64,000 nt of DNA, taken from assembly GCA_964510205.1 (NCBI GenBank), contig CAZEBW010000004.1, positions 3,638-67,637 on the forward strand. The letters run 5' to 3'. Of the stretch, positions 11,401 to 25,650 are shown one piece after another. Each line of letters starts with the position of its first letter. Positions within the stretch are counted from its first letter, which is position 1. The notes beneath the pieces were generated by a model. The model did no database searches and was not told where the DNA came from. It worked only from the letters and a program-made list of their open reading frames with translations. This DNA comes from an uncultured Anaerolineae bacterium. Its GTDB lineage: Bacteria; Chloroflexota; Anaerolineae; VGOG01. A program made the translations under genes and the position numbers.

Positions 11401-11430
11401 TTGACAAGATTAGAACATGTGTGCTATAAT
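11401..11430 (+). promoter_or_regulatory. Near-consensus sigma-70 promoter
   Basis: TTGACA (11401-11406), 18-nt spacer ending in TGc, TATAAT (11425-11430). A GAGGAGGGA RBS precedes ATG 11486. Confidence 0.55.
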
Positions 11431-11840: not shown

Positions 11841-13340
11841 TCATGGAAGCGGTGGCAGTAGTATCCTATTGATGGTTATGCCCCACTGGTCACTTCTTCG
11901 TTCAAGCCCTTCCATTAGTTGCTGGCATGCTGTGGCCTTGTTCGGCGGATCATGTACATCCTGTTGCCTGTATCCACATAACGCCTCATTCAGGAGCACG
12001 GCCATTTCCTGCACGATTTCTTTGTCCCAAATAGTCTTCATGTCGGCTTCGGTCAGTTTTTTCTTCTTGGTCTTCTTGTGGTTATTCTCACCAGATTCTC
12101 TAAAGAAGTGAGGTGCATGAACCGCTTTTTCCTTATTGACCTGGTAGTAAACTACTGGGGCAAGCTGCAAGACCCCATCTGCTAGTGCGACTTTCTGTTT
12201 GGGGCAACGGCATCTCAGCTCCATGGTCGGGATTACAGCTTGAATTTGGCTGTACAAGGGAAGCTGAAGAATACTTTGACCTTCTTCCAGCACCCTGATT
12301 TCGCGACTGTCTCCGATCACAGCAATCCTGTCGGGTGGGACGGTGAAGGTGAACGCCCTGTATCCAACGAGCACCAGAAGGACAAGCAAGAGTGGCAAGG
12401 CCGTACCCGCGGCAGTCAAGACAACGATGTGCAGTGAACTGCGCACGGAAAGCAGTATGCTCGCCAGCAGCATCAGTAGTACAATGACCACAAAGCCTGC
12501 CAACGCGCTGACAAAGGCGAGCACAGGGCTGGACAGTATTAGGTTGATGGCATCGCGAGCGTATGTGAGCAATGTCTCGAGTTGAATAGCAAGCGATGGT
12601 GGAGATTGCTCCGCCGCTCCGTCCTTCTCCTGCTCTGACGGCCTCATGCCTTGCGGACTGGCGTCTCCAGGTGGAAGGGATTCTTCGTCAATGTCCTCTG
12701 AGTTCATGGCTAGTCGTTCCGTCGTTTGCTCAGGCATACTCTCTTCACCCTCCTCTTGTTTTTGCTTCGCCTCTTGGCCTGACGGCTCCGTTTGTACGGG
12801 ACCAGCTCTTCCACGTCGAAGCGGTCCTCCGCCGGTATCTCCTGAATCCATGGCTACTTGTTGGTCTCGCAGGATCTTCCGGTATCGTGACTCGACTGTG
12901 CGCCTTAGGCGGCGGTCCATGTCCTGCAGCAGTTCCAGGCTGCGTGAACAGGCTTGACTTGCCTTGAGCCATTTGCCTTGGGCCTCGCACACCGTGGCCA
13001 ATCCAAAGAGGGCTACTGCTTGACTATGTTTGTCACTCAGAAAGAAGCGAGTGCTCTCTTGATACTTGTTGGCTGCCTCATCCAAGTGTTCCTGAGCGTG
13101 AAAGATAGCTGCGAGGTGAATAAGGGCTACCCCTTGAGCATATGAGTCATCCAACATGTCCAATTCGAGAGATCCTCTTGCTGATCTAATGCTTTGCTCA
13201 GCTATCGATTGGGCTGCTTTGTACCGGCCAGCTCGTCGCAGTTTGTCGGCCTCCTTGTTGAGCACGGTACCGCGATTAGTTCGTTCTCTTAGTTGGCGTA
13301 TGATCTGGTTGGCTTGTCGGTGGTAAGGATCGGATGTCAT
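11841..13340 (-). CDS. TPR-like N-domain / acidic linker / 2 TM / divergent SPFH (band-7)-like C-domain protein
   Basis: N-terminal helical-repeat region (AAQSIAEQS...LFGLATVCEAQGKWLKA), an E/S/P-rich linker and two hydrophobic helices. The C-terminal pattern (RIAVIG..REIRVLEEGQ...VVYYQV...WGITINRILLPP) is collinear with the SPFH fold. Start set at MTSDPY (ATG 13340). Confidence 0.55.
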   Translation of the reverse strand: MTSDPYHRQANQIIRQLRERTNRGTVLNKEADKLRRAGRYKAAQSIAEQSIRSARGSLELDMLDDSYAQGVALIHLAAIFHAQEHLDEAANKYQESTRFFLSDKHSQAVALFGLATVCEAQGKWLKASQACSRSLELLQDMDRRLRRTVESRYRKILRDQQVAMDSGDTGGGPLRRGRAGPVQTEPSGQEAKQKQEEGEESMPEQTTERLAMNSEDIDEESLPPGDASPQGMRPSEQEKDGAAEQSPPSLAIQLETLLTYARDAINLILSSPVLAFVSALAGFVVIVLLMLLASILLSVRSSLHIVVLTAAGTALPLLLVLLVLVGYRAFTFTVPPDRIAVIGDSREIRVLEEGQSILQLPLYSQIQAVIPTMELRCRCPKQKVALADGVLQLAPVVYYQVNKEKAVHAPHFFRESGENNHKKTKKKKLTEADMKTIWDKEIVQEMAVLLNEALCGYRQQDVHDPPNKATACQQLMEGLERRSDQWGITINRILLPPLP

Positions 13341-13419
13341 TGAAGTCCCCCCATAGAAGGAAAGCCCACCGGGATGCAGGAGAGTTGGGCCGGATAAACT
13401 AAGGTGTTCTGCGATATCG

Positions 13420-14727
13420 CTATGGGCTGCCAGGCGGCAATGCAATCGCTGATCTTATGGATTGCAGAGTGGCCATCACGTCGGAAGGCAGAAGGATCTT
13501 GGTCGCTGGATCGGAGGCCATTTTCTCCAGAGCTTCAATGAAACGCAAGGCTATGAATTGTGGAATCGGGATGTTCTTAGTCTCCATCTGACGGAAGCCT
13601 TCGGTGATGGCTATGATCATTCTAGTTTGAGCTTGTGCTCTGGCAACCTCAATCAGGTTATATACTTCAGCCTGTGCCTCGCCTTCAGTGATGAGGACTT
13701 GCTTGCGACTCTCCGCCATGCGCGCTTCCCAGTCTACTTGCCATTTCTTTTGCATTCCTTCCCTAATTTCCGGAGGCACCTCAATATTCAGCATCTGAAA
13801 GCTTATGATAGTGCCTCCCCAGCCTTCGGCTATCTTTCGCAGGGAATCTCGGACACGCTGCTTGATGTCGCTTTGAGGGAACGTGTTGGGATCCAGTGGG
13901 TCAAAGATATCATCCAAGTAACGTTTGCCAATCTCGTCGCGAAGCAGATTCTTGGCTACTTCGATAGTGGCGATTTCCCAGTCATAGCTATCGTAGGTAG
14001 CTTTGAGGACCGCCTCTCTAGAGAATGGATAGGGCTTCTCTGGGTTCCACACCTTGGCTGGATCCTGCGCGATGCGGAATAGAACGCTATAGTGGATGGT
14101 CACCGGTATGCCATCTTTGGTTGAGGCATTATCTAGCGTTCCTCTCCTGAACCGTTTCCGTGTGACGATGACCTTCCTGATACTTTCAAAAGGCTTGGTG
14201 CGCACTGCACCGGGCCCCTCAATGCGAGTGAATTTCCCCATCCGCTCGAAGACAACGGCTTGCTCGTTGCGTATTACGATCAAATTGGCTACCTTGAAGC
14301 CGGCGAGTGCGCCTTTGGACTTCACCTCGTCCACTTGGCCATCTTCAACGATGATGTAGCTTCCCAGGAATAGCTCTCCGGTGACAAAAGAGAGTAAATA
14401 CCGAAAGCAGTCCCACTGATTGCCGCCCCGGCTGACCAGTATGAGTTGCGAGGCCAGAAACAGGAGACTGCCTGTTAAGAATAGATAGACAGCCAGCCCC
14501 AATACTGCCCCCGTCAGGCCTCTCGTGACGAAGGAGAAGGTCAGAAACACCCCACTTGCAGTGAAGAATATCGCCAGCGCCACGCCCTTGCTCTGGCCCA
14601 TCCTGACAAGACACCCAAGGGAGACCACAGCGAGCCATACTAGGCCCCATTTGGGCTCGTGAACTACAGAGACTAAAATCAGTAGTGGAAGCAGGGCTAC
14701 GGACAACACAAGCAAGATCTTCTTCAT
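13420..14727 (-). CDS. SPFH/band-7 (stomatin/prohibitin-like) membrane protein
   Basis: Four N-terminal TM helices, then VIRNEQAVVFERMGKF...TKDGIPVTIHYSVLFRI...GWGGTIISFQMLNIEVP and a coiled-coil tail. AAGGAGAG RBS precedes ATG 14727. Confidence 0.75.
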   Translation of the reverse strand: MKKILLVLSVALLPLLILVSVVHEPKWGLVWLAVVSLGCLVRMGQSKGVALAIFFTASGVFLTFSFVTRGLTGAVLGLAVYLFLTGSLLFLASQLILVSRGGNQWDCFRYLLSFVTGELFLGSYIIVEDGQVDEVKSKGALAGFKVANLIVIRNEQAVVFERMGKFTRIEGPGAVRTKPFESIRKVIVTRKRFRRGTLDNASTKDGIPVTIHYSVLFRIAQDPAKVWNPEKPYPFSREAVLKATYDSYDWEIATIEVAKNLLRDEIGKRYLDDIFDPLDPNTFPQSDIKQRVRDSLRKIAEGWGGTIISFQMLNIEVPPEIREGMQKKWQVDWEARMAESRKQVLITEGEAQAEVYNLIEVARAQAQTRMIIAITEGFRQMETKNIPIPQFIALRFIEALEKMASDPATKILLPSDVMATLQSIRSAIALPPGSP

Positions 14728-14903
14728 AGCACAAGCTCTCCTTGTTTCTGTCAGCACTCTTAAGGTACGTGAGACTGCCGTCCAGTGCGTTCAACACGAG
14801 CTTATCTGACGGCGCCACAGGTATCACCCAGTTTCCATAGATCGAGGCAAAACCAAAAGGCCGCGGCTCGATATCGAAAACGTTTTGCAATGAGGGTGCT
14901 CAC

Positions 14904-16418
14904 TCAGCTCTGGGCGATCAAAATGGGGGAAGCCCAAGTCAAGTCATCCTTATTACGCATTGCCAGCTCTCGCCGGGCATCCAGCAGTGCCAGTTCAGGG
15001 CTGCCGTGCTGGAGCATAGAACGATAGAACGCCAGTGCCATTTCCTTGGCGCTCACTGCCGGCACTGACCACCTGTAGCCCAAAACAGACGGCACCCCTG
15101 ATTGGATAATTCCATCAGCGATACCCAGGTAGTCATCGTCCAGCAAATCAACCGGGCTGCCGGTACGAGTGCCCTCGCAGCACGTCAGGTGAAACAAACG
15201 GGTGTCAGAATCTTCCAACAGCCATCTCAGCTCATTTCCGGTCATTGGCTTTATATTCCCTGACCGGTTGCTGTCTTCCCAGAAGAACAATCTGCTCTGT
15301 TCCGGAGACCCCTCGTGAAAGACTCCGTGACCAACATAATGCACGATGTGATGCTTACACCCACGGAGCATTTCTTGCACTGCACTGTATGTAGCTGCTT
15401 CGGTTCTGACATGAGTCAAATCCAACCAGTTCAGTGGCGACAGCAAATCCACCAACTCTTCTCCGATTTTGTCAATCAGATCAATGCGTGGCTCAGTGTT
15501 GGACACGAGCAGTAGAACACGCAGGTTCTCGCCTGAACTGGCGAGACGTCGTATGAGTTCAGCAGAGATGGGTTCACGCCTCGTCACTACGCCTCGAATT
15601 TGGCGGACCATTGGATGGAGCAGTGTAAGGTAATCACCAGCCTCATCGGAAAAGATGAACTCCAGTGGCAATCCTGCCAGATCTCGGGTGGATTCAAACA
15701 CGAGGTGCAAGTATTGGTTCATTTGCGTCCTACCGAGTGCTCGGTGATACCCGTTGAGTACCGCAGAGTGCTGTTCGAACAGCAGGCGGTATAGCTCCCG
15801 TCCCACGTCTTTGATCAGAAAGCGGCGGTCTGCTGTGCTCATCATGCGTTCGCTTCCCCAGCGTGCAAAACGTGGAGCGTCGAGGCTTAGTGGATTGACA
15901 GAGGTGTATGTGAAGCGGATGTTGCCACGGCCCCGCACAAGAAGTCGCTGCCCTGGCTCTAGCGAGATTGTAATTTCGCACTCTTGGCTCGGCTCAAAGA
16001 CCGGCAATTGCCATTTCAATGACCTACTGATCACGCTATCCATCACTTTAACCACATCTTCTATCATGGTCTTTGGGAGGTACTCGGCTACAAGTCGCCG
16101 TCCAGTTGCATCAGGTTCCAGGGCGCGCCTCATCGTGTCAGGGGTACCATAGCCGGTGATAATGACAATCGGGAGCCCAGGGAATCGTCGTTTAAGCTCA
16201 GCAGCTAGATCAAGGCCTTCTAGGTTGCCTTCATCTGTCTCGTCCAAGCGCATGTCAAGTAGGGCTGCGTCGAAATGCTCTCGGTCAGACAAATCCAGGG
16301 CTCGCGCAACACTGGCAGCCGTTTTGGTTGCGTAGCCCTCGTCAATCAAGAGTTGTGAAAGGGTCACTCGCCAGTCAAACAAATCATCTACGATAAGCAC
16401 CTGGATTTGTTTAGTCAT
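14904..16418 (-). CDS. Response-regulator receiver fused to CHAT (caspase-like) peptidase domain
   Basis: REC features: VLIVDD...LLDMRLDE...ITGYG...LPK. CHAT features: HIVHYVGHG (His), LFHLTCCEG (Cys), SVLGYRWSV. The ATG overlaps the stop of the upstream kinase by 8 nt. Confidence 0.85.
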   Translation of the reverse strand: MTKQIQVLIVDDLFDWRVTLSQLLIDEGYATKTAASVARALDLSDREHFDAALLDMRLDETDEGNLEGLDLAAELKRRFPGLPIVIITGYGTPDTMRRALEPDATGRRLVAEYLPKTMIEDVVKVMDSVISRSLKWQLPVFEPSQECEITISLEPGQRLLVRGRGNIRFTYTSVNPLSLDAPRFARWGSERMMSTADRRFLIKDVGRELYRLLFEQHSAVLNGYHRALGRTQMNQYLHLVFESTRDLAGLPLEFIFSDEAGDYLTLLHPMVRQIRGVVTRREPISAELIRRLASSGENLRVLLLVSNTEPRIDLIDKIGEELVDLLSPLNWLDLTHVRTEAATYSAVQEMLRGCKHHIVHYVGHGVFHEGSPEQSRLFFWEDSNRSGNIKPMTGNELRWLLEDSDTRLFHLTCCEGTRTGSPVDLLDDDYLGIADGIIQSGVPSVLGYRWSVPAVSAKEMALAFYRSMLQHGSPELALLDARRELAMRNKDDLTWASPILIAQS

Positions 16419-17205
16419 GGCTGCTATCCGTGGGAGTTTCTATGGCTTTGATCACAGGGAGTGTGATCGCTATCGTCGTGCCGTGGCCAATCTCAGTATG
16501 TTTTACACTAATCTCTCCACCAAACCTGGCAAGTATCAAATGCGCTAACCAGAGACCCAGGCCCTTGTTGGTCCCGGTTGACGGAATCGGACCCTGAAAA
16601 AGATCGGCAAGAATGAGTTGCGGTATCCCTGTTCCGTTATCTGCAATCTCTACTCGCACTGTGTTGTCCGCGTCCACGTACTGGGTATGGATGTCAATAT
16701 GTCCGGGTTTTTTGCTTGTTGCTTGGATCGAGTTTTCGAGCACCGCCCGGAAAACCTCCGCGAGCAAGTGGCTATCAGCACGCACGGGAGGGACATCCTC
16801 TGGAAAATCAAAACTCACCCGTACTGTCTTGGAAGTGTGGCTAGCAGAAAGTTCTTCCCAGACCTCATACAGCAGTGAGTTTACGTCTAAGGGCATAGGC
16901 GGCTCACTCGGCTCTCTGAGTACTTCGACGGCGGCACTTAATTCGCTCAAACTGCTAATGGTCTTTTCTATGGCTGTGACCAGGTCGAGGGCGGCTCTAT
17001 CGTTGCTATTGATGTATTCCTTAAGACGACCGACTCGAACTCCCAGCAACCCAGTCAAGTTGGAGAGCTGGTGCAGTAATGCAGCAGAAGCCATCCCCAG
17101 TGCAATGAGGCTGGCCTCCTCCCCGTGGCTACGGTTAGGATGTGCACTTTCTTGCGGTAGGGGTGGATTTGGTCTCTGACTTTCCCGGTCATTTGGTGGA
17201 CTCAT
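16411..17205 (-). CDS. Sensor-less cytoplasmic histidine kinase (DHp + HATPase_c only)
   Basis: H-box-like AALLHQLSNLTG. ATPase N/G boxes VLENSIQAT, IADNGTGIP, GLGLWLAHLI. No TM or sensor domain. Confidence 0.8.
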   Translation of the reverse strand: MSPPNDRESQRPNPPLPQESAHPNRSHGEEASLIALGMASAALLHQLSNLTGLLGVRVGRLKEYINSNDRAALDLVTAIEKTISSLSELSAAVEVLREPSEPPMPLDVNSLLYEVWEELSASHTSKTVRVSFDFPEDVPPVRADSHLLAEVFRAVLENSIQATSKKPGHIDIHTQYVDADNTVRVEIADNGTGIPQLILADLFQGPIPSTGTNKGLGLWLAHLILARFGGEISVKHTEIGHGTTIAITLPVIKAIETPTDSSHD

Positions 17206-17241: not shown

Positions 17242-18717
17242 TCACTCCTGATGAATCAAGATAGGCGACAACCAGGTTGGATCGTTTCTGTCCATAGCGG
17301 CCAGCTCGCGCCTTGCGCTCCAGAGGGCGAACTCCGGCCCCCCTTGCTCCAATAAGGACTGGTAGAAAGCCAACGCCAGCCGACGGGCTCCATCATCTGA
17401 CACAGGCCAGCGGAAGCCCAGCACCGAGGGTGCGCCGGCCTGCGCGACAGCGTCGGCCAGCCCAAGGAAATCGTCATCCAGCAAAGCAGCCTGAGCGCCG
17501 CTGGCTGTGCCATAGCAACTGCTCATGTACACCAGACGTGCTTCCGAGCGCCTGAGTAGCATCTTTAGTTCGGTTGCTTTCATCGGCATGACGCCACCTT
17601 GCTTATTCTCCTGGGCCCAGAAGTATAGGCTGCTATCTTCAGGGGACTCGGTCCTGTACGAGCCATGTCCTGCGTAATGTACAATGTCGTAACTGGGCTT
17701 CCCCAACTCTGATCTTACGCGCTCATACGTGGCGCGCTCCGTGGGGATGAGTTTAACACTGACAGGGATGCAGTCCTGGCTCTTTAAGTACTCGTACAGT
17801 GCCTGCGCCTCGGCATCTACGCCGTCTATTGGAGGCTGTGTGTTAGAGGCGATAATCAGAATTCGCAATTCCTGAGTCAGTGCCAGCAGCGAAGGGGAAA
17901 TCAGGCTGCGTTTCGGGGTAGCATTGTATAGAAAACGGGCGAGGGGGTGTTGAAGTACCAGGTACTCTGGAGGATCATCCGAGCGCATAAATTCCAATGG
18001 TAGTCTGAGAAATTCCCTGGGCGTCTCAAAAAGCATTGAAAACGACTGGCTCTTGGCGCGCGCTTCCACATAGGCTTTTTCGGCTTCAGGGTGCTCAGTA
18101 AATATGTCACGCCACAGACTGTGGCCGATCTCCCCAACCTGGAAACGCAAATTGCTCACGTCTCTTCTGGCGAGTTCTGTCCGCCTTGCATAGCGTTCGA
18201 GTGCCACACGCAACACTTTCCACGAGCGCAAGGAACAGACGTGGCGACCGCGCGCCCTGATCACCAGAGGCTGTCCGGCTGTGAGTGATAGAGATAGCTG
18301 GGTAGCATCACCTGTCTTCTCAAACCTCGGCTTGGTTGCCTCCTGGCGTGCTTTCGCGATAGTCTCCAGAACTTGTTCAGCCACATCCGGGGTTTTTTCG
18401 ATGAAGTCAACTACTCCGAGATATCGAATCGCGCGTACAATTTGCTTGGTTCTCGGGTAGCGTGTGAGCAGGATGACGCGAACCCGCGGATTGAGGGCGC
18501 GGAATGCCATCGCCAGGCTCAATCCGCTTTCGTCCTCTTCATCATCTCCGTGCAGGCGCACGTCAATGAGAGCAAAGTCGAACGGTTCTTGCGTGACAGC
18601 AACCAGGGCTTGTTCCTCGTTGGCCGCTGACCGGACGGTGTATCCTTCATCGGAAAGTCGCCCTGCTAACGTGGTACAGAAATCGGCATGGTCATCTACT
18701 ATCAGAATCTTGCACAT
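17242..18717 (-). CDS. Response-regulator receiver fused to CHAT (caspase-like) peptidase domain
   Basis: REC features: ILIVDD...LIDVRLHGDDEEDE...LLTRY...IEK. CHAT features: DIVHYAGHG (His), LVYMSSCYG (Cys), SVLGFRWPV. Start chosen at MCKILIVDD (ATG 18717, GAGGG RBS); upstream in-frame ATGs at 18732 and 18768 are possible. Confidence 0.85.
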   Translation of the reverse strand: MCKILIVDDHADFCTTLAGRLSDEGYTVRSAANEEQALVAVTQEPFDFALIDVRLHGDDEEDESGLSLAMAFRALNPRVRVILLTRYPRTKQIVRAIRYLGVVDFIEKTPDVAEQVLETIAKARQEATKPRFEKTGDATQLSLSLTAGQPLVIRARGRHVCSLRSWKVLRVALERYARRTELARRDVSNLRFQVGEIGHSLWRDIFTEHPEAEKAYVEARAKSQSFSMLFETPREFLRLPLEFMRSDDPPEYLVLQHPLARFLYNATPKRSLISPSLLALTQELRILIIASNTQPPIDGVDAEAQALYEYLKSQDCIPVSVKLIPTERATYERVRSELGKPSYDIVHYAGHGSYRTESPEDSSLYFWAQENKQGGVMPMKATELKMLLRRSEARLVYMSSCYGTASGAQAALLDDDFLGLADAVAQAGAPSVLGFRWPVSDDGARRLALAFYQSLLEQGGPEFALWSARRELAAMDRNDPTWLSPILIHQE

Positions 18718-18757
18718 TGCTACCCTCTTCATCAACTGTCTGATGGGACGCTCCGGG

Positions 18758-19639
18758 TCATCCAGCATTCCCCCAATTTGCCTGTATGTAACTCGTTGTC
18801 GCCTTTACGTCCAGGCTGCGAGTCGAATTGCCAATACGCACCCAGAACTTGTGAACATCGCCCGTCGCCAGGAACACCGGCTTTGGGCTTTTTTCAATCG
18901 CAACGATGCAGACGTGTTTACCATCTATGGGTTCGAAGCGTGTGCGAATGTATGGCATATATTCTAGACCCACATAGGTCTTGACAATATCCGTCAATGC
19001 CAATTGAAACCCATCGGTATTTGGCTTGCGCAGAGTTTGTAAGTCTTTTTCAATACCTAGCACCGTGCCATCGTCAGCGACGCCAATGAGTAGGGTCCCA
19101 CCCTTGCTGTTCAACATTCCTGTGATTGCCACGGCGATCGTTTCCTGCAGGCTCTTGTTAGTTGTGTTTTTCTTGAAATCCCAGCGGATACTGGACTTGA
19201 ATTCCACGTGGTCATTTTCACCTTGGGCAATCAAATTGAGTACCGAGCGTTCAAATGCGCGGTTCACGTACTCCGGCAGTTGGTCTACTTCAGATTTTTC
19301 CAGGAAGCCAAACGCTGGTGATACTCCCTCGCGATCAGGTTGAAGGACCTCCCTCACCATCCTGACGTTTGCATAGCCGGTCAAGATAATGATGGCCACA
19401 TGGGGGTCCTTCTCTCTGATCTCGCGCATAAGCAAGATGCCATCTTGGTTGTCCTCGTCGGCCTCGTCCAAGCGCACGTCCAGAACTGCGACGTGAAAAC
19501 GCTCGGCGTCCAACATTTGCAGAGCCTCAACTCTGCTGGATGCCGAGCGTACTTCATAGCCTTCGTCTGACAAAAGGCCCGACAATGTTGCGCACACGTC
19601 GGGCAGGTCATCTACTACGAGAACGCGACCTTTGTACAT
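18758..19639 (-). CDS. Response-regulator receiver fused to AlbA_2 (Schlafen-like, putative nucleic-acid-binding) domain
   Basis: REC features: VLVVDD...VLDVRLDEADEDN...LTGYA...LEK. C-terminal features: GENDHVEFKSS...MLNSKGGTLLIGVADDGTVLGI, matching the AlbA_2/divergent-AAA pattern. AGGAG RBS precedes ATG 19639. Confidence 0.75.
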   Translation of the reverse strand: MYKGRVLVVDDLPDVCATLSGLLSDEGYEVRSASSRVEALQMLDAERFHVAVLDVRLDEADEDNQDGILLMREIREKDPHVAIIILTGYANVRMVREVLQPDREGVSPAFGFLEKSEVDQLPEYVNRAFERSVLNLIAQGENDHVEFKSSIRWDFKKNTTNKSLQETIAVAITGMLNSKGGTLLIGVADDGTVLGIEKDLQTLRKPNTDGFQLALTDIVKTYVGLEYMPYIRTRFEPIDGKHVCIVAIEKSPKPVFLATGDVHKFWVRIGNSTRSLDVKATTSYIQANWGNAG

Positions 19640-19665: not shown

Positions 19666-20067
19666 TTATCGTGCCAACACTTCCTGTACTATCTTGACCA
19701 ACTCTTCGGTCTGGGTTTTCGGGATATAGTTCGCTACAAGTCTCCGGCCCTGCGTATCTGGCTCCATTGCCCGTCTCATGGTATCCGGCGTGCCGTAGCC
19801 TGTGATCATTACGACTTCGGTAGTGGGCCAATGTTGTTTGATCTCATCCGCCAGGTCCAGCCCCTCGGTGTTACTCTCGTCCGTCTCGTCCAGGCGCATG
19901 TCCAGTACTGCCAGATCAAAATGGCTGGTTTTGAGCAACTCCAATGCCGCAGGCGAAGACTCGGCAACCTGGACATCGTATCCCGCGTCCTCCAACAAGC
20001 CACCGAGCGTCGTGCGCCAATCTAGCAGGTCATCTACCACCAGAATCTTCTGCCGTTTGTTTGTCAT
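19666..20067 (-). CDS. Stand-alone response-regulator receiver
   Basis: ILVVDD...VLDMRLDETDESN...ITGYG...IPK. Closest in sequence to the REC of the 14904-16418 protein. Shows an ATGA start/stop overlap with the upstream gene. Confidence 0.9.
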   Translation of the reverse strand: MTNKRQKILVVDDLLDWRTTLGGLLEDAGYDVQVAESSPAALELLKTSHFDLAVLDMRLDETDESNTEGLDLADEIKQHWPTTEVVMITGYGTPDTMRRAMEPDTQGRRLVANYIPKTQTEELVKIVQEVLAR

Positions 20068-20453
20068 TCTCTTACTCCTTCGTGCTTACCATGGCGATTA
20101 CGCGGCACCTGTGGAAACAGAATGATCTCCCTGACCTGCTCGAAGAGATCCTCGCTTCCGAAAGACTTGGCGAAGTAGCGCATGGCTCCCAACCGGTAGG
20201 CCGCAAGCGCCTCTTGGGTCGTGGGTTGTACTGTTGTTACGACCACCCGCTTATCAGAGTATTTCTCAGCGATGACTGCAAGCACGTCCAGGCGGCGGGA
20301 GCTTGCGATGACCAGGTCGAACTGATCCGCTTCGAGTTCAGCGAGTGCTGCCTTGGTGTCAGGCGCAACGACGATTTCAAACTTGTTGAGATCGCTCTTG
20401 GCGAACTCAATCCAGCGAGGTTCGTCGTCAATGATCAGAATGCGAGTTTTCAT
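20064..20453 (-). CDS. Atypical (pseudo-)receiver domain protein; phospho-acceptor Asp replaced by Ser
   Basis: ILIIDDE...FDLVIASSRR...VVVTT...FAKSF. The acidic pair, Thr and Lys are kept, but the D57-equivalent reads S. AGGAGG lies 7 nt upstream of ATG 20453. Confidence 0.7.
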   Translation of the reverse strand: MKTRILIIDDEPRWIEFAKSDLNKFEIVVAPDTKAALAELEADQFDLVIASSRRLDVLAVIAEKYSDKRVVVTTVQPTTQEALAAYRLGAMRYFAKSFGSEDLFEQVREIILFPQVPRNRHGKHEGVRE

Positions 20454-20455
20454 GA

Positions 20456-23400
20456 TCACACCTCCTTTCCCGTCCCCGGCGCTGGGATCTGAACCAGCAT
20501 TGTTGTTCCAGTGGGATCGGTCTCTTCTATTATAGCATCACCGCCAATACTTTGCAACATCAGTCGGCTGAGCCAGAGACCCAGACCTGCCCCTCCGCCT
20601 GGCTCCTTGGATGGGACTGGTTTGACGAAGAGACGTTGCTGGACTTGCAGTGGGATGCCCGGTCCTGTATCCTGAACCCGCACACAGATATTACTGTCGG
20701 TCAGACGACTGGTAACTGCTAACTGGCCACCCGCCTTCATTGCTCGGTAGGCATTGTCAACCAAGTTGTAGAAGACCTCAGCGATCTGACCGATCGGGGC
20801 CCGAATCTGCGGCAGCGATTGATCCAGGTCTAGGGTATGTTCGATCGTTGATCGAATGGGATCCGTTCGCCACTGTTCTCTCACTTTACCCACCACGTCA
20901 CTCAGCACTGCGTTAATGTCCACATCCTGATCCTCGACCTCTCGCAGCGGTTCTTGAATGCGCGCGATGATATCCGACGTATAGCGGGCGTTACGTTCGA
21001 TGATGTCAAGGATCTCTGCAATCGTATCATTCGACATATCAACGCGCTTCCGCAGGCGCGTCACGTTGGGAACGATGATGTTGAAGGTATTATTGACACG
21101 ATGTTGTAAAGCTGCGATGGCCGTGCCCAGTGTGGCCAAGCGCTTGGTCGCGATGACTTCACTGCGTGCCTCCTCATATAACCGGGCATTCTCAAGGGCA
21201 ATGGCTGCCTGGTTGGCCATAGAGGAGATGACCTGCAAGTCCTGTTCATCGTAGGCCTGCTCTCTTTCCCAGTCGTAGATAGCGATCACGCCCAGAACCC
21301 TATTCTCCAGAACCATCGGGACACCTATCCAAGATTTGGCGACACGCCCGATGAACTCTTGATGTCCGGGCTGTCCATACCACGCTTTAGATTCCACTTG
21401 GGTGCGATGCAGGATTGGCTTCTTGGTAAGGATGACTTCTTCGGTCTTACCCCGCTTCTCCATATCAGCCTTGCGGGGATCGTAATGCACCTGCTCACCG
21501 TGCTCCGTTGCCAGACCGAAGCGGATCATCCCTGTTTCCTCGTCATACAGCGCGATGTACATGTCCTGTGCGCCGGTCAACTCCCTGGCCTGCTCGTAGA
21601 TTAGCTCCAGAATCTCATCTTGCTTCAGACGAATACCGGAGGTTAGTGCCTGTCCTACCTCATTCAGTGCCGCCAACGCCTGAACGCGCCGTGCGAGCTG
21701 CTGGTTGATCTCGTAGTAAAGCGTTGCATTATCCAACGCGATTGCCGCTTGGTTGGCCACAGAGGAGATGACCTGCAAGTCCTGTTCATCGTAGGCCTGC
21801 TCTCTTTCCCAGTCATAAATGGCGATCATACCCAGTACCTTCTCACCTGTGACCATGGGAACGCCCAAGTAAGAAGGCTGAACACGCCCGATGAACTCTT
21901 GATGTCCGGGCTGTCCATACCACGCTTTAGATTCCACTTGGGTGCGATGCAGGATTGGCTTCTTGGTAAGGATGACTTCTTCGGTCTTACCCCGCTTCTC
22001 CATATCAGCCTTGCGGGGATCGTAATGCACCTGCTCACCGTGCTCCGTTGCCAGACCGAAGCGGATCATCCCTGTTTCCTCGTCATACAGCGCGATGTAC
22101 ATGTCCTGTGCGCCGGTCAACTCCCTGGCCTGCTCGTAGATTAGCTCCAGAATCTCATCTTGCTTCAGACGAATACCGGAGGTTAGTGTCTGTCCCACCT
22201 CGTTCACTGCCTGTATAGCTTTATACAAGCGTGCGCTTTTAATAGCAACCGCTGCTGCCCCAGCTAGGGCCTCAACCAGACGCATGTGATCGTCTGTAAA
22301 GGCTCCGATTTGGGTACTCTCCAGATTGAGCGTTCCAATCACTCTGTCACGGTGTATCAACGGTGTTGTGAGTTCGGATTGTACTTCCTCAAACCACTCC
22401 TTGTAGTACGGATCGCTTTTGATATCGTTGCAAAGATATGTCTTTCTACTCAAGGCAACGTGTCCGTTGATGCTCGTCTCGTCTAGGGGTAGTCTCGTGA
22501 GGGTTCGCGTCGGCGTCTCATCCCTCTTGTTTCTCGCCCCAAATCGCAGTTCACGTGTCCGCTCGTCCAGCAACCAAATACTCGTATACTTGGCTGGCGT
22601 CAGCCTGGCCGCTTGCTCTGCGATTTGCTCCAGCAGATCCTCTAGGGAAGCAGTGCCAATGAGCGCGTATAGGTTCTGAAGAGCTCTGATATCATCAATT
22701 CGCTCTTGTAGGCTAGTCTGAGCCTCTTCGTACACACGGGCGTTATAGATAGCTGTCGCCGCTTGATTAGCGAACAGCTCGATAGCCCCCCGTTGCTCAG
22801 GAGTGAAGGGTTGTCGGCTCCGGTAATTGACGAACATAGCGCCCACGGTTTCGCCTGCTGCTTCGAGGGGGACGGCGGCTGACGATAGGATTCCCTCGCG
22901 CACTACAAAGCGCTTTTCCGGGCGCTCAGGGCGCTCTACGGTGAATGGGCCGGTGAGCAGGGTATCCGTCTGAGTATCGGGAGAGTAGAGGGGCTCTCCA
23001 CCCTCGACCACTTTCACAACGACATCATCCTTGAATATTTCGTCCTTGACAACTGTGGGGTCTCGGCGCTCTCCTTCCAAGATAGGTGGCATGATGTAAC
23101 GGTCATCCGCCTCAACGTACTGGTACACATCCACGAGATCGGCACCCAATACACTCCTGGCACTTCGCGCCACCTGACGCAATACCTCTCTCAACCCCTG
23201 TGCCGAAAGCTCAGCCGAGAGTATTCGTCCCCCAATCTGGTGCAGCCTCTGCAAGACTGCAGCCCGGCTGGTTGCCTGCTCAAGAAGTTGAGCATTGTGT
23301 ACAGCCACGGCGGACTGGCTGGCCACCGCCTCTAACAGCATCTGATCGTGCTCGTCAAAGCCGCTCAGCCCGTCCATATCAGCAGAGATCACCCCAATAA

Positions 23401-24228: not shown

Positions 24229-25569
24229 TCAATTATGAGGTTGGTGTCTCCAGACTTCCAATGACTCCCTATATCCCGCTTCCGAAAATGCTAACCCCTT
24301 CTCCCTCAGCATCATAGCGGTGAGAAGGTGAGGTAATCCTTTCTTCTTTTCCAGGAAGACGATTTGTGGGCCGGAAAGCGTACGCCTACCATTCTTCTTC
24401 AGGAATTGCATGAGCTGGCGACGTCCGCGCTCAACGGTCTTTAAGAAACGCTGTGCCTCGGTTGAGAAATAGGATTCCAGTTTCTCCTCGTCCTCCGGCG
24501 CCGCTCGCGAAGCGTTGCGCACTGTTTGGGAAATGCAATCTATCAGTGTGGGTAGAAACCCCCTGGTTTCGATGCCCAGAACAATCTGCCGCGTTACGAC
24601 ACCTCGAATCAATAGCTTAATGAGACGCTCTCGCCCATTCTTACCTGGAGGTGGAGCGCCATCTGCGACTAGGAAATACAGCGCCTTTAGATAATCTGCC
24701 ATCACATGTTCGCTGGCAGTGATCAACGATTCTGGCAGGTCAGGTGCGCGAACGAGACTATGTATGGTGTCTGTGATCGGTTGGTAACTACTTATCTCAA
24801 ACACTGATTGAGCATCTTGCAGGATCATTGCCACGCGCTCAGTGCCAATCACCGTTTCGAAGAAAGGCTCCGTCATCGGTTGGAGCCTTTGGGTCTTAGT
24901 GTCTATCTCGGTGCTGACAAAGAGTGAATTGGCGAATTCAACGAACCGACCGCACTGGCAAGGCGGCCGACAATCGGGGCCGCAGCCAAAGACCGCGCCT
25001 CGATCAAAGAACATCTCAGTATTGGGCCCGCATTTACGATAGCGAACTACCCCTTCAATGCCATTTCCTTGTTTCCAGAGGTTGTCCTTGACTCCCAGAC
25101 CTATGATCTGCTCTTCAGGCATCCCGATACTCCGCCAAGCTTGATGAGCCTCTACATCCTCGTCAAACGCATGCTTTGAAATCTTACCCCCGGCGAAATA
25201 AGTGACCCATATGTTGTCTGGCTTGATTCTCAGGTTTGAGGTCATGAACTCCCACATTTGCTGGATAACAGTTGCCTTGCTGAGAGCATTAAAGGAAAAA
25301 GCGGCGGGCATTTCAAACAAGCTTAGGTGCACATTGTCGGTTCCAACGGTGTCAATGTCGAAATATCTGAAGCACTTTTGCACCAGTGCATACTTATGCC
25401 CGGCACGCTTGCCCATCTGATCAAGAGCCTTTTCAAATTGCGGTAATCCAGCACTCATTACGAACGACATAGGAATAGAGGGATGCAACAGCGAGGCACT
25501 AGGCAGAACGGAGAATCCTTTGCCCTGGTAATAATCGAGGAACGTTTGGCTAATGGCTGGGGATCGCAT
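24229..25569 (-). CDS. Alanyl-tRNA synthetase catalytic-core paralog (aminoacylation + tRNA-recognition domains only; no editing or C-Ala domains)
   Basis: 446 aa, collinear with roughly the first 450 residues of bacterial AlaRS. Matching blocks: FLDYYQGKGF, VMSAGLPQF (vs FTNAGMNQF), QKCFRYFDIDTVG (vs QRCVR..NDLENVG), LFEMPAAFSF (vs FFEMLGNFSF), KCGPNTEMFFD (vs GPCGPCTEIFYD), ETVIGTERV (vs DTGMGLERI), YFLVADGAPPPGKNGRE (vs AFLIADGVMPSNENRGY). Confidence 0.8.
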   Translation of the reverse strand: MRSPAISQTFLDYYQGKGFSVLPSASLLHPSIPMSFVMSAGLPQFEKALDQMGKRAGHKYALVQKCFRYFDIDTVGTDNVHLSLFEMPAAFSFNALSKATVIQQMWEFMTSNLRIKPDNIWVTYFAGGKISKHAFDEDVEAHQAWRSIGMPEEQIIGLGVKDNLWKQGNGIEGVVRYRKCGPNTEMFFDRGAVFGCGPDCRPPCQCGRFVEFANSLFVSTEIDTKTQRLQPMTEPFFETVIGTERVAMILQDAQSVFEISSYQPITDTIHSLVRAPDLPESLITASEHVMADYLKALYFLVADGAPPPGKNGRERLIKLLIRGVVTRQIVLGIETRGFLPTLIDCISQTVRNASRAAPEDEEKLESYFSTEAQRFLKTVERGRRQLMQFLKKNGRRTLSGPQIVFLEKKKGLPHLLTAMMLREKGLAFSEAGYRESLEVWRHQPHN

Positions 25570-25621: not shown

Positions 25622-25650
25622 ATTATATCAAACCTGTCCTTAAATGTCAA
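25622..25650 (-). promoter_or_regulatory. Perfect consensus sigma-70 promoter for the island operon
   Basis: The minus strand reads TTGACA (25650-25645), an exact 17-nt spacer, then TATAAT (25627-25622), set in an AT-rich gap. About 50 nt of 5'UTR with a GGAG RBS precedes ATG 25569. Confidence 0.65.

Follow-up and report, generated by a model that had tools for sequence, protein, structure and literature searches.

Can a two-component receiver act directly on a Schlafen nuclease? The question is raised by a gene in a 64,000-nucleotide stretch of DNA from an uncultured Anaerolineae bacterium (Chloroflexota; GenBank assembly GCA_964510205.1, contig CAZEBW010000004.1, positions 3,638 to 67,637 of the forward strand), hereafter the window. 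The gene, referred to as REC-Schlafen, encodes a two-component receiver (REC) domain joined to a domain of the Schlafen ribonuclease type. It lies in an operon with genes for an alanyl-tRNA synthetase (AlaRS) paralog, a multi-GAF histidine kinase, further receivers, and CHAT proteases (Table 1). We consider it probable, with moderate confidence, that REC-Schlafen is a phosphorylation-activated, metal-dependent Schlafen endoribonuclease, most likely a tRNase, and one of several parallel toxic effectors of one kinase.

Two papers published in 2026 describe prokaryotic Schlafens as signal-activated tRNases (PMC13056530, PMC13462974). RorSlfn5, which joins a Schlafen domain to an Ig-like sensor, is triggered by the T5 tail-assembly chaperone, forms higher oligomers, and cleaves the anticodon arm in a Mn2+-dependent manner; its activation does not induce an SOS reporter. 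EcoSlfn7, a DUF262-Schlafen fusion, protects against phage. The same study defined the catalytic motif Ex4(E/D)xK for SLFN11 and 5,930 prokaryotic Schlafens and catalogued 55 Schlafen fusion architectures (Perez Taboada et al., Nat Microbiol 2026; PMC13056530). CbCash, a Schlafen-Csx15 protein found in a Chloroflexi bacterium, rests as an inactive dodecamer; binding of cyclic tetra-adenylate (cA4) converts it into filaments with aligned catalytic interfaces. It cuts the T and anticodon loops of tRNA and recognizes the tRNA U-turn, and its cryo-EM structure with tRNA contains an E17/D22/K24-Mg2+ center, the counterpart of Ex4(E/D)xK (Weickert et al., Nat Commun 2026; PMC13462974). The activity of both RorSlfn5 and CbCash depends on the E/D/K motif and on oligomerization (PMC13056530, PMC13462974).

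Results

REC-Schlafen consists of a receiver and a single Schlafen domain

The open reading frame starts with the ATG at 19639 and its stop codon ends at 18758, exactly as originally predicted. This ATG is preceded by AGGAG with a spacing of 4 nt, just past the stop codon of the upstream gene, the homologs share the same N-terminal start position, and the 293-aa product was also called on two independent assemblies of the same sequence. A 357-aa version with a TTG start at 19831, found in a mechanical list of open reading frames, was rejected, as the ribosome-binding site, the N-termini of the homologs, and the independent gene calls all favor the ATG.

Pfam assigned Response_reg to residues 6–102 (E = 6.8e-19, 68.5 bits against a cutoff of 30.2) and SLFN_AlbA_2 (PF04326) to residues 141–276 (E = 1.7e-18, 67.7 bits against a gathering threshold of 25.3), the latter spanning positions 1–117 of the 118 in the profile. 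No helix-turn-helix (HTH) or other further domain was detected by Pfam. The original prediction of a receiver fused to an AlbA_2/Schlafen domain without an HTH was thus borne out in both respects. More than 120 clusters of ~300-aa homologs carry the same two domains, and in our sample the family was found only in uncultured metagenome-assembled genomes (MAGs) or metagenome contigs. The AlphaFold2 (AF2) model of the full-length protein had a predicted local distance difference test (pLDDT) score of 89.3.

Whole-protein sequence and fold searches of the PDB returned receiver domains alone; for comparison with the Schlafen fold, the C-terminal domain was modeled and searched separately from the receiver. 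The best structural matches were the AlbA_2 protein DIP2311 (3LMM, score 13.2), human SAMD9 (7KSP, 12.7), SLFN5 and SLFN12 (7Q3Z and 7LRD, 11.1), a RecG-related N-terminal domain (2KYY, 10.5), and SLFN11 (7FEX, 10.2; 7ZEL, 10.1). The match list from Foldseek agreed with these structures. The profile and structure searches proposed along with the original prediction both recovered the Schlafen domain. Considering the Pfam coverage and the list of structural matches, which was the same by Foldseek, the call of a Schlafen domain is far beyond chance.

The catalytic residues and the phosphorylation pocket are conserved

The catalytic motif E141-x4-E146-x-K148 is located at 19196–19219 on the first Schlafen strand, in the sequence G-E141-N-D-H-V-E146-F-K148. 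In an alignment of 87 REC-Schlafen homologs with 54%–90% identity, E141 was kept in 87/87, and E146 and K148 were each kept in 86/87. Another acidic residue, D189 (codon 19073–19075), lies in a GVADDG loop and was kept in 87/87. Its partner in rat SLFN13 (5YD0) is the second Asp of GVDDES, by a marginal phmmer match in which the EFK motif was out of register; the Schlafen matches of this search of the C-terminal domain against the PDB had E values of 0.065–1.5 and were used for the GVxDD region alone. By an offset calculation, D189 may be the counterpart of rat SLFN13 D248, the third catalytic residue. There is a single AlbA_2 stretch (residues 141–276) and the protein ends at residue 293, so it has no two-lobed core, linker, and helicase of the eukaryotic SLFN type.

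Conservation of the receiver pocket was equally high: D10 was present in 85/87 homologs, and D11, D54, T87, and K115 were each present in 87/87. By alignment, these positions match D12/D13/D57/T87/K109 of CheY, and the codon of the phospho-acceptor D54 is located at 19478–19480. The receiver switch and the Schlafen active site are both under strong purifying selection. In Foldseek searches, the receiver was closest to the class of NtrX, NtrC1, and DctD receivers (TM scores of 0.8–0.88). Receivers of the NtrC1/DctD class signal via α4-β5-α5 and linker-helix dimers. In the AF2 model of REC-Schlafen, a single 25-residue helix extends α5 as the linker and stops two residues short of the catalytic strand with which the Schlafen domain begins.

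Directly after D54 there is an unusual acidic insert, RLDEADEDNQDG (D54-V-R-L-D-E-A-D-E-D-N-Q-D-G), which is absent from CheY and from the pseudo-receiver of the operon. The insert (~6 residues, D-x-R-L-D-E-x-D-E-x-N-x-x-G from the acceptor Asp; 19442–19480 on the minus strand in REC-Schlafen) is common to the four phosphorylatable receivers of the operon, namely the stand-alone receiver, REC-Schlafen, and the two REC-CHAT proteins. Since these four share both the acceptor Asp and the insert, they form one receiver clade of their own, and the simplest arrangement is that a single kinase serves all of it. A GAF histidine kinase is encoded two genes upstream of REC-Schlafen in the window and in every related locus.

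The operon appears to encode a branched two-component pathway

The genes of the operon are packed tightly on the minus strand with several start/stop overlaps of 4–11 nt, which points to translational coupling. Its first gene is the AlaRS paralog, confirming that an AlaRS paralog shares the operon with REC-Schlafen as had been predicted. The kinase gene directly downstream encodes the presumed cognate kinase of REC-Schlafen. In the small receiver that follows the kinase, the acceptor Asp is replaced by Ser (IASS), and the position is Ser or Asn in 12/12 orthologs, with the DD, T, and K residues retained; this pseudo-receiver is perhaps a kinase-bound adaptor or inhibitor.

A Pfam scan of the operon proteins detected no histidine phosphotransfer (Hpt) domain in any of them. 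A His-Asp-His-Asp phosphorelay was thus rejected, as the Hpt domain is missing and the two small receivers are one pseudo-receiver and one stand-alone receiver. REC-Schlafen had been regarded as the third output of a relay; the absence of an Hpt domain points instead to a branched pathway from one kinase to many receivers.

Effectors are swapped on a conserved sensor core

We compared the operon with related loci, numbered from L001 (the window). Four REC-Schlafen homologs with 54%–70% identity, located on long unrelated contigs, were found in the order AlaRS paralog, multi-GAF kinase, receiver, receiver, REC-Schlafen, and REC-effector. The flanks outside this unit were unrelated, and the last gene encoded REC-CHAT, REC-EAD7-CHAT, or REC-TIR. 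When one genome per species was scanned, the best 80 loci included REC-Schlafen in four Chloroflexota/Anaerolineae MAGs, all with the same cassette. All REC-Schlafen loci with enough flanking DNA (L001, L003–L010, L093, L096, L099, L102, L107, L108, L119, and L128) showed the order AlaRS paralog, GAF kinase, pseudo-receiver, receiver, REC-Schlafen, and then REC-CHAT or REC-TIR. In viral contigs there were only two weak, unrelated Schlafen matches and no sign of a phage-borne cassette.

A second survey, anchored on the AlaRS paralog, added 83 further loci. The GAF kinase adjoined the paralog in nearly every locus with enough DNA, usually directly downstream, with the pseudo-receiver and the small receiver next in line; in more divergent loci, a kinase was upstream or on both sides. 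The slot occupied by REC-Schlafen (slot 1) held REC-Schlafen in 8 loci, REC-TCAD9/APH kinase-like proteins in 4, a receiver with an unannotated ~150-aa domain in 5, HD-CE-REC in 1, and REC-EAD11 followed by EAD11-trypsin in 1. Schlafen and TCAD9/APH were mutually exclusive in the sampled loci, and an HTH output was never found in the Schlafen slot of the sister operons sampled. The next slot (slot 2) held REC-CHAT or REC-TIR, or REC-Nuc_deoxyrib_tr-CHAT or REC-TIR_2 in more distant versions. Polymorphic, swappable effectors on a conserved sensor core were therefore found at both slots. As the slot content varies while the core of AlaRS paralog and kinase is kept, REC-Schlafen appears to be one interchangeable effector cartridge of this core.

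The unannotated slot-1 proteins are receiver proteins of 285–289 aa (L091 15547–16404, L104 12924–13781, and L117 7356–8225) whose C-terminal ~150 aa have no Pfam match; this part is a candidate new effector domain. The short kinase (264 aa) and second REC-CHAT that follow the first REC-CHAT in the window also occur in L010 (an Anaerolineae MAG, 12006–14279) and are absent from most loci. One or two SPFH/Band-7 genes recurrently flank the cassette, either upstream of the AlaRS paralog or after the effectors (window 11841–14757, L007, L008, L091–L096, L102–L107, L128, and L168); in the window, the partner of the SPFH gene encodes a protein with TPR and transmembrane (TM) segments.

The AlaRS paralog accompanies the kinase

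The AlaRS paralog covers only the aminoacylation and tRNA-recognition regions and stops where the latter ends. It scored 224 bits with NCBIfam alaS, against a cutoff of 457. Compared with Escherichia coli AlaRS, it retains motif-2 R69 and the motif-3 E-R pair, and the ATP-binding motifs are kept (R68, E244/R245). Several changes are invariant in the family: in the canonical alanine pocket, Glu takes the place of E. coli D235 and Val that of G237, four residues are deleted after R69, the YDTYGFP segment becomes LEKxxGLP, and there is a seven-residue insert. Also invariant, and absent from E. coli AlaRS, is a four-Cys cluster, C196-x3-C200-x-P-x-C204-x-C206 (CG.DCRP.C.CGR; ~24946–24984, minus strand), which may be a Zn or redox site. 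The amino-acid pocket is predicted to be remodeled. Given the sub-threshold alaS score, the truncated domains, and the invariant pocket changes, the paralog is unlikely to be an ordinary alanine-charging enzyme; it may bind ATP and perhaps tRNA.

The family comprised at least 120 clusters among the matches listed, with 49%–100% identity to the window protein (49%–87% without the window's own matches) and lengths of ~388–485 aa, mostly ~445 aa. Its members are linked to the GAF kinase with or without a Schlafen gene (L087–L089, L098, L103, and others). The possibility that the paralog is a Schlafen-specific partner, such as an antidote or a substrate presenter, was rejected, as it is equally present in operons without Schlafen. 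Because it tracks the kinase and not the Schlafen gene, the paralog would belong to the sensing side of the pathway, and that it is so strictly tied to the kinase speaks for a part in sensing or in generating a signal. The most attractive analogy, which is speculation, is a tRNA sensor like that of GCN2.

Some distant systems (L160 8585–11362, L161 3138–5897, and L164 1597–4359) have a tandem-duplicated AlaRS paralog of ~920 aa with GAF kinases on both sides; two tRNA-synt_2c stretches were confirmed by Pfam on L164. The effectors of systems of this type are REC-Nuc_deoxyrib_tr-CHAT and REC-TIR_2.

The same Schlafen subtype is appended to other proteins

Relatives of the C-terminal Schlafen domain with 41%–51% identity over ~155 residues were found in many phyla. 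Among them, the Schlafen domain was always C-terminal, and the catalytic motif was present in 77/77 other proteins of the subtype. Pfam analysis of a sample revealed GmrSD_N/DUF262-(GmrSD_C)-Schlafen and HARE-HTH-Schlafen architectures, a 1151-aa HsdR-Schlafen protein of the type I restriction class, a periplasmic SBP_bac_3-TM-Schlafen sensor in Algibacter (L039 5448–6794), and membrane-anchored Schlafen proteins of ~265 aa in Roseibium, Erythrobacter, and Methylomonas. An exhaustive search of representatives returned 406 below 1e-30, mostly with a C-terminal Schlafen domain, in proteins of 140–1176 aa.

About a dozen REC-Schlafen fusions were among the representatives listed, including lineages only 33%–39% identical to the window protein. 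Two of the distant lineages (34%–39% identity) were looked up, and in both the REC-Schlafen gene comes immediately after histidine kinase genes. In L172, it is preceded by GAF/PAS kinases and a REC-TIR_2 gene; in L173, it and a TPR-kinase gene make up a simple pair adjoining an AAA_15/21 ATPase. On the evidence of the C-terminal placement in varied architectures and of the distant lineages encoded after kinases, REC-Schlafen is a recurrent class of response regulator, and this Schlafen clade looks like a portable C-terminal effector.

Proteins of ~245–275 aa from Halopseudomonas, Tropicimonas, and Aurantiacibacter (L014, L016, and L027) have an N-terminal part that looks hydrophobic, apparently a two-TM anchor, and a cytoplasmic C-terminal Schlafen domain. 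Together with the SBP_bac_3 protein, such small membrane-anchored proteins would be transmembrane sensors of the one-component kind, with RNase activity as their output.

Discussion

A proposed phosphorylation-activated Schlafen nuclease

The sequence analysis itself shows which domains are present, that the phospho-acceptor and catalytic residues are conserved, and that the operon is kept while its effectors are exchanged; phosphotransfer, activation by oligomerization, the tRNA substrate, and the trigger belong to the proposal. In the mechanism that we propose, the multi-GAF kinase, working with the AlaRS-like protein, would detect an intracellular cue and pass phosphate to D54 of REC-Schlafen and, at the same time, to the receivers of the CHAT proteases. 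The stand-alone receiver may serve as a phosphate sink that sets a threshold against accidental firing, with the pseudo-receiver as a kinase-bound adaptor. Phosphorylation of D54 would alter receiver dimerization, and the helix running from α5 into the catalytic strand (E141/E146/K148) would transmit the change. Because this helix continues straight into the catalytic strand, we infer that the Schlafen domains are repositioned or paired into an active oligomer, with a dimer or oligomer geometry suited to clamping and cutting RNA, as in SLFN11 dimers and Cash filaments. Cleavage of tRNA would then halt translation while the co-activated CHAT protease, or TIR in sister operons, acts on other targets. 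The outcome would be growth arrest or cell suicide of the filamentous Chloroflexota host, for example upon infection or severe stress.

Several observations weigh against this proposal. For some AlbA_2/Schlafen proteins, binding of nucleic acid is not followed by cleavage, and SLFN5 and a SAMD9-DNA complex are among the top structural matches. The nuclease domain is C-terminal here and N-terminal in the characterized prokaryotic Schlafens, and the activation geometry may differ accordingly. PADLOC detected no known defense system in the window, with only weak receiver or CHAT matches. The operon is flanked by glycosyltransferase, FolC-like, and other housekeeping genes, and L003–L006 are flanked by other housekeeping genes, so that the location is not a recognizable defense island. 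The REC-Schlafen family looks lineage-conserved in Chloroflexota rather than sporadic. This conservation, together with the location, fits a physiological or stress role as well as it fits immunity.

Comparison with known systems

REC-Schlafen resembles the prokaryotic Schlafens RorSlfn5 and EcoSlfn7 in having a single Schlafen nuclease domain, the Ex4(E/D)xK motif, and an effector fused to a variable regulatory or sensor domain, and by analogy with them signal-triggered tRNA cleavage is proposed. The DUF262/GmrSD_N-Schlafen proteins described above have an architecture like that of EcoSlfn7, and their Schlafen domain is 49%–51% identical to that of the window protein. However, the regulator of REC-Schlafen is a receiver fed by a separate kinase, whereas those proteins sense phage proteins directly, and the nuclease of REC-Schlafen is at the C-terminus instead of the N-terminus, with its gene belonging to a multi-effector operon that lies outside defense islands.

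CbCash shares the E/D/K triad, where it binds Mg2+, and the phylum with REC-Schlafen, and it is a tRNase that stays inactive until its signaling domain rearranges the oligomers and aligns the catalytic interfaces. There, the signal is cA4, received by a Csx15 Rossmann domain and leading to filaments; here, it is predicted to be aspartyl phosphorylation, and there is no CRISPR association. The tRNase domains of mammalian SLFN11/12/13/14 and SAMD9 belong to proteins with a two-lobed pseudo-dimeric core, linker, and helicase, whereas REC-Schlafen has one lobe and would need to homo-oligomerize; control of the mammalian SLFN proteins is by Ser/Thr phosphorylation rather than on a receiver Asp.

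Like CheB, PleD/WspR, RpfG, and PorX (REC-PglZ), REC-Schlafen would have a receiver that directly gates an enzymatic output instead of DNA binding. The outputs of those response regulators are a methylesterase, cyclase, phosphodiesterase, or phosphatase, and none among them is known to have a Schlafen-fold nuclease. A further analogy, and no more than an analogy, is with GCN2, the eukaryotic eIF2α kinase, in which a catalytically altered aminoacyl-tRNA synthetase paralog works with a protein kinase and the output is a shutdown of translation; GCN2, however, is a single polypeptide with a Ser/Thr kinase and a HisRS-like domain.

The effector repertoire is that of the conflict systems of Kaur et al., with CHAT, TIR, trypsin, APH-like kinase, EAD7, EAD11, and TCAD9 swapped at fixed positions and with enrichment in filamentous or multicellular lineages (PMC7159879, PMC8195603). 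Those systems have vWA-MoxR, STAND, or other NTPase cores, in contrast to the GAF histidine kinase and AlaRS paralog here, and no histidine kinases were reported among the effectors of vWA systems (Kaur, Burroughs, Iyer, and Aravind, eLife; PMC7159879). Neither AlaRS nor Schlafen is mentioned in these two surveys, and the main texts of the two 2026 Schlafen papers do not mention receiver, response-regulator, or two-component fusions (PMC13056530, PMC13462974). In the literature searched, whose coverage ends short of subscription journals, there was no description of a REC-Schlafen fusion or of an operon of AlaRS paralog and GAF kinase. A Schlafen effector with a regulatory domain is a known kind of protein; the receiver as its regulator, the C-terminal topology, and the multi-effector operon with AlaRS paralog and GAF kinase appear to be undescribed.

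Alternative explanations

The same mechanism could serve an endogenous program of stress, starvation, or development in filamentous Chloroflexota, such as dormancy, translation shutdown, or the death of damaged cells, instead of defense against phages. We regard this as possible though doubtful, and hold equally tentatively that the AlaRS-like protein might signal the state of tRNA or amino acids to the kinase, in analogy to the HisRS-like domain in GCN2. The chromosomal housekeeping flanks without known defense genes nearby, the broad conservation within one phylum (50%–90% identity), and the near-absence from viral contigs are in agreement with such a program, as are the SPFH membrane-scaffold pairs that accompany the cassette and the obligate AlaRS paralog, with its ATP-binding motifs kept and its pocket remodeled. 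On the other hand, effector swapping and the EAD and TCAD domains are hallmarks of conflict systems (Kaur et al. 2020; PMC7159879), here seen at fixed slots. CHAT, TIR, and Schlafen each have an established role as immune effectors. A more far-reaching picture, which we think rather unlikely, is a hitherto unrecognized two-component "executioner" system of multicellular Chloroflexota, in which the catalytically remodeled AlaRS paralog would act as a sensor of tRNA or aminoacylation state, or as a generator of a nucleotide signal for the GAF array, the kinase would, via dedicated receivers, arm the Schlafen tRNase together with CHAT or TIR, and the pseudo-receiver and sink receiver would set the threshold.

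It is unlikely that REC-Schlafen is a receiver-controlled active nuclease with rRNA, mRNA, or DNA rather than tRNA as its substrate. SLFN14 and SLFN13 cut rRNA too, the SLFN5 and SAMD9 domains bind DNA, and the C-terminal subtype is fused to the DNA-targeting restriction modules GmrSD_N and HsdR. A link to tRNA had originally been drawn from the AlaRS paralog in the operon; that argument lost its specificity, since the paralog tracks the kinase and has no specific link to the Schlafen gene. The idea of a tRNA ligand itself gained ground from another side, as both characterized prokaryotic Schlafens cut tRNA loops, RorSlfn5 without inducing the SOS response (PMC13056530) and CbCash by reading the U-turn (PMC13462974).

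Phosphorylation-controlled binding of nucleic acid and its cleavage had been predicted side by side. The invariant D11/D54/T87/K115, the catalytic motif, and the adjacent kinase are consistent with phosphorylation control, and as far as residues and gene content can tell, cleavage is far better supported than mere binding. It is quite unlikely that the Schlafen/AlbA_2 domain is a non-catalytic nucleic-acid-binding module, making the protein a phosphorylation-controlled transcription factor or RNA-binding regulator of the neighboring effector genes, even though "transcriptional regulator" is a common annotation of bacterial AlbA_2 proteins, one JGI homolog is labeled "predicted HTH transcriptional regulator", and the top structures include the SAMD9 domain with DNA (7KSP) and SLFN5, a "DNA/RNA binding protein". 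REC-Schlafen has no HTH or other DNA-binding domain, and binding alone would need neither E-x4-E-x-K nor D189, which are kept in 86–87 of the 87 homologs. Furthermore, the slot in sister operons holds enzymes or death-type adaptors (TCAD9/APH, HD-CE, and EAD11-trypsin) and never an HTH output, and the same Schlafen subtype is appended to the restriction-type proteins GmrSD and HsdR.

That the receiver is a dimerization or scaffold domain, or a kinase-independent, nucleotide-responsive switch of the kind proposed for receivers of some conflict systems, is highly improbable: receivers without kinases do occur in some conflict systems (Kaur et al. 2021; PMC8195603) and the operon has one true pseudo-receiver, but REC-Schlafen, unlike that neighbor, conserves all five residues of the phosphorylation chemistry, and every locus examined, those of the two distant lineages among them, has an adjacent histidine kinase.

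If the proposal of a phosphorylation-activated Schlafen tRNase is correct, aspartyl phosphorylation directly gating such an enzyme, beside caspase-like and TIR effectors, would constitute a new output class of two-component systems and extend their signaling from gene regulation and second messengers to the direct execution of arrest or death. It would also be a new mode of regulation for Schlafen nucleases, whose activation is an active question in human antiviral and cancer biology (SLFN11, SAMD9) and in bacterial immunity, and would offer a simple switch (BeF3− or D54E) for studying how oligomer geometry turns such a nuclease on. An aminoacyl-tRNA synthetase paralog would then act as a signaling input, and its invariable coupling to the kinase may mirror the GCN2 logic in bacteria. 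The swapping pattern would, moreover, flag other unannotated receiver-effector fusions as candidates, among them the receiver with the ~150-aa domain, HD-CE-REC, and REC-TCAD9/APH.

Other features of the locus

The coordinates of the gene, its domains, and the other features of the operon are listed in Table 1.

Table 1. Features of the REC-Schlafen gene and its operon in the window
Feature	Position	Strand	Evidence
REC-Schlafen response regulator gene, 293 aa	18758..19639	−	Translation; Pfam Response_reg and SLFN_AlbA_2; AF2 model; homologs
Receiver (REC) domain, residues ~4–115; D10/D11, D54, T87, K115	19295..19630	−	Pfam; Foldseek; CheY alignment; 87-homolog alignment
Long α5/linker helix, residues 115–139	19223..19297	−	DSSP of AF2 model: H115–139, then E145–148
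Schlafen/AlbA_2 domain, residues 140–289	18773..19222	−	Pfam; structure matches; motif conservation
Promoter-like site matching TTGACA-17-TATAAT (with TG) at 12/12 positions; lies 52 nt before the AlaRS-paralog start	25622..25650	−	Consensus match only
AlaRS catalytic-domain paralog, 446 aa, first operon gene, no editing or C-Ala domains	24229..25569	−	Pfam tRNA-synt_2c 2–426/552
Histidine kinase, six GAF + HATPase_c, 1245 aa	20456..24193	−	Pfam; kept directly downstream of the AlaRS paralog elsewhere
Pseudo-receiver, 131 aa; start overlaps kinase stop by 4 nt	20064..20459	−	Pfam; CheY alignment
Stand-alone receiver, 133 aa, acceptor Asp intact, acidic insert	19666..20067	−	Pfam; alignment
Response regulator REC-CHAT, a caspase-like protease; 11-nt overlap of its start with the REC-Schlafen stop	17242..18768	−	Pfam CHAT, E = 1.5e-33
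Short second histidine kinase, 264 aa, HATPase_c	16411..17205	−	Pfam
Second REC-CHAT response regulator, 504 aa	14904..16418	−	Pfam
Membrane SPFH/Band-7 protein	13420..14757	−	Pfam
TPR + transmembrane protein, 534 aa, overlaps SPFH gene end; likely last gene of the unit	11841..13445	−	Pfam; gene calls

The promoter-like site is the likely promoter of the operon, as judged from its match to the consensus. In the first REC-CHAT protein, the H..GHG and SC motifs could be read from the sequence, and the C-terminal part of the TPR/TM protein may be a divergent SPFH domain. Neither tRNA genes nor a second copy of the Schlafen domain or of AlaRS occur in the window.

The kinase varies in length from ~600 to ~1930 aa among the related loci. 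In the window, its gene contains a 540-bp tandem duplication (21186–22181) that doubles one GAF domain, with 300 nt being 100% identical (21342–21641 and 21882–22181); this is either a very recent expansion of the GAF array or an assembly artefact. A second perfect sigma-70 consensus is located on the plus strand at 11401–11430, pointing away from the far end of the operon.

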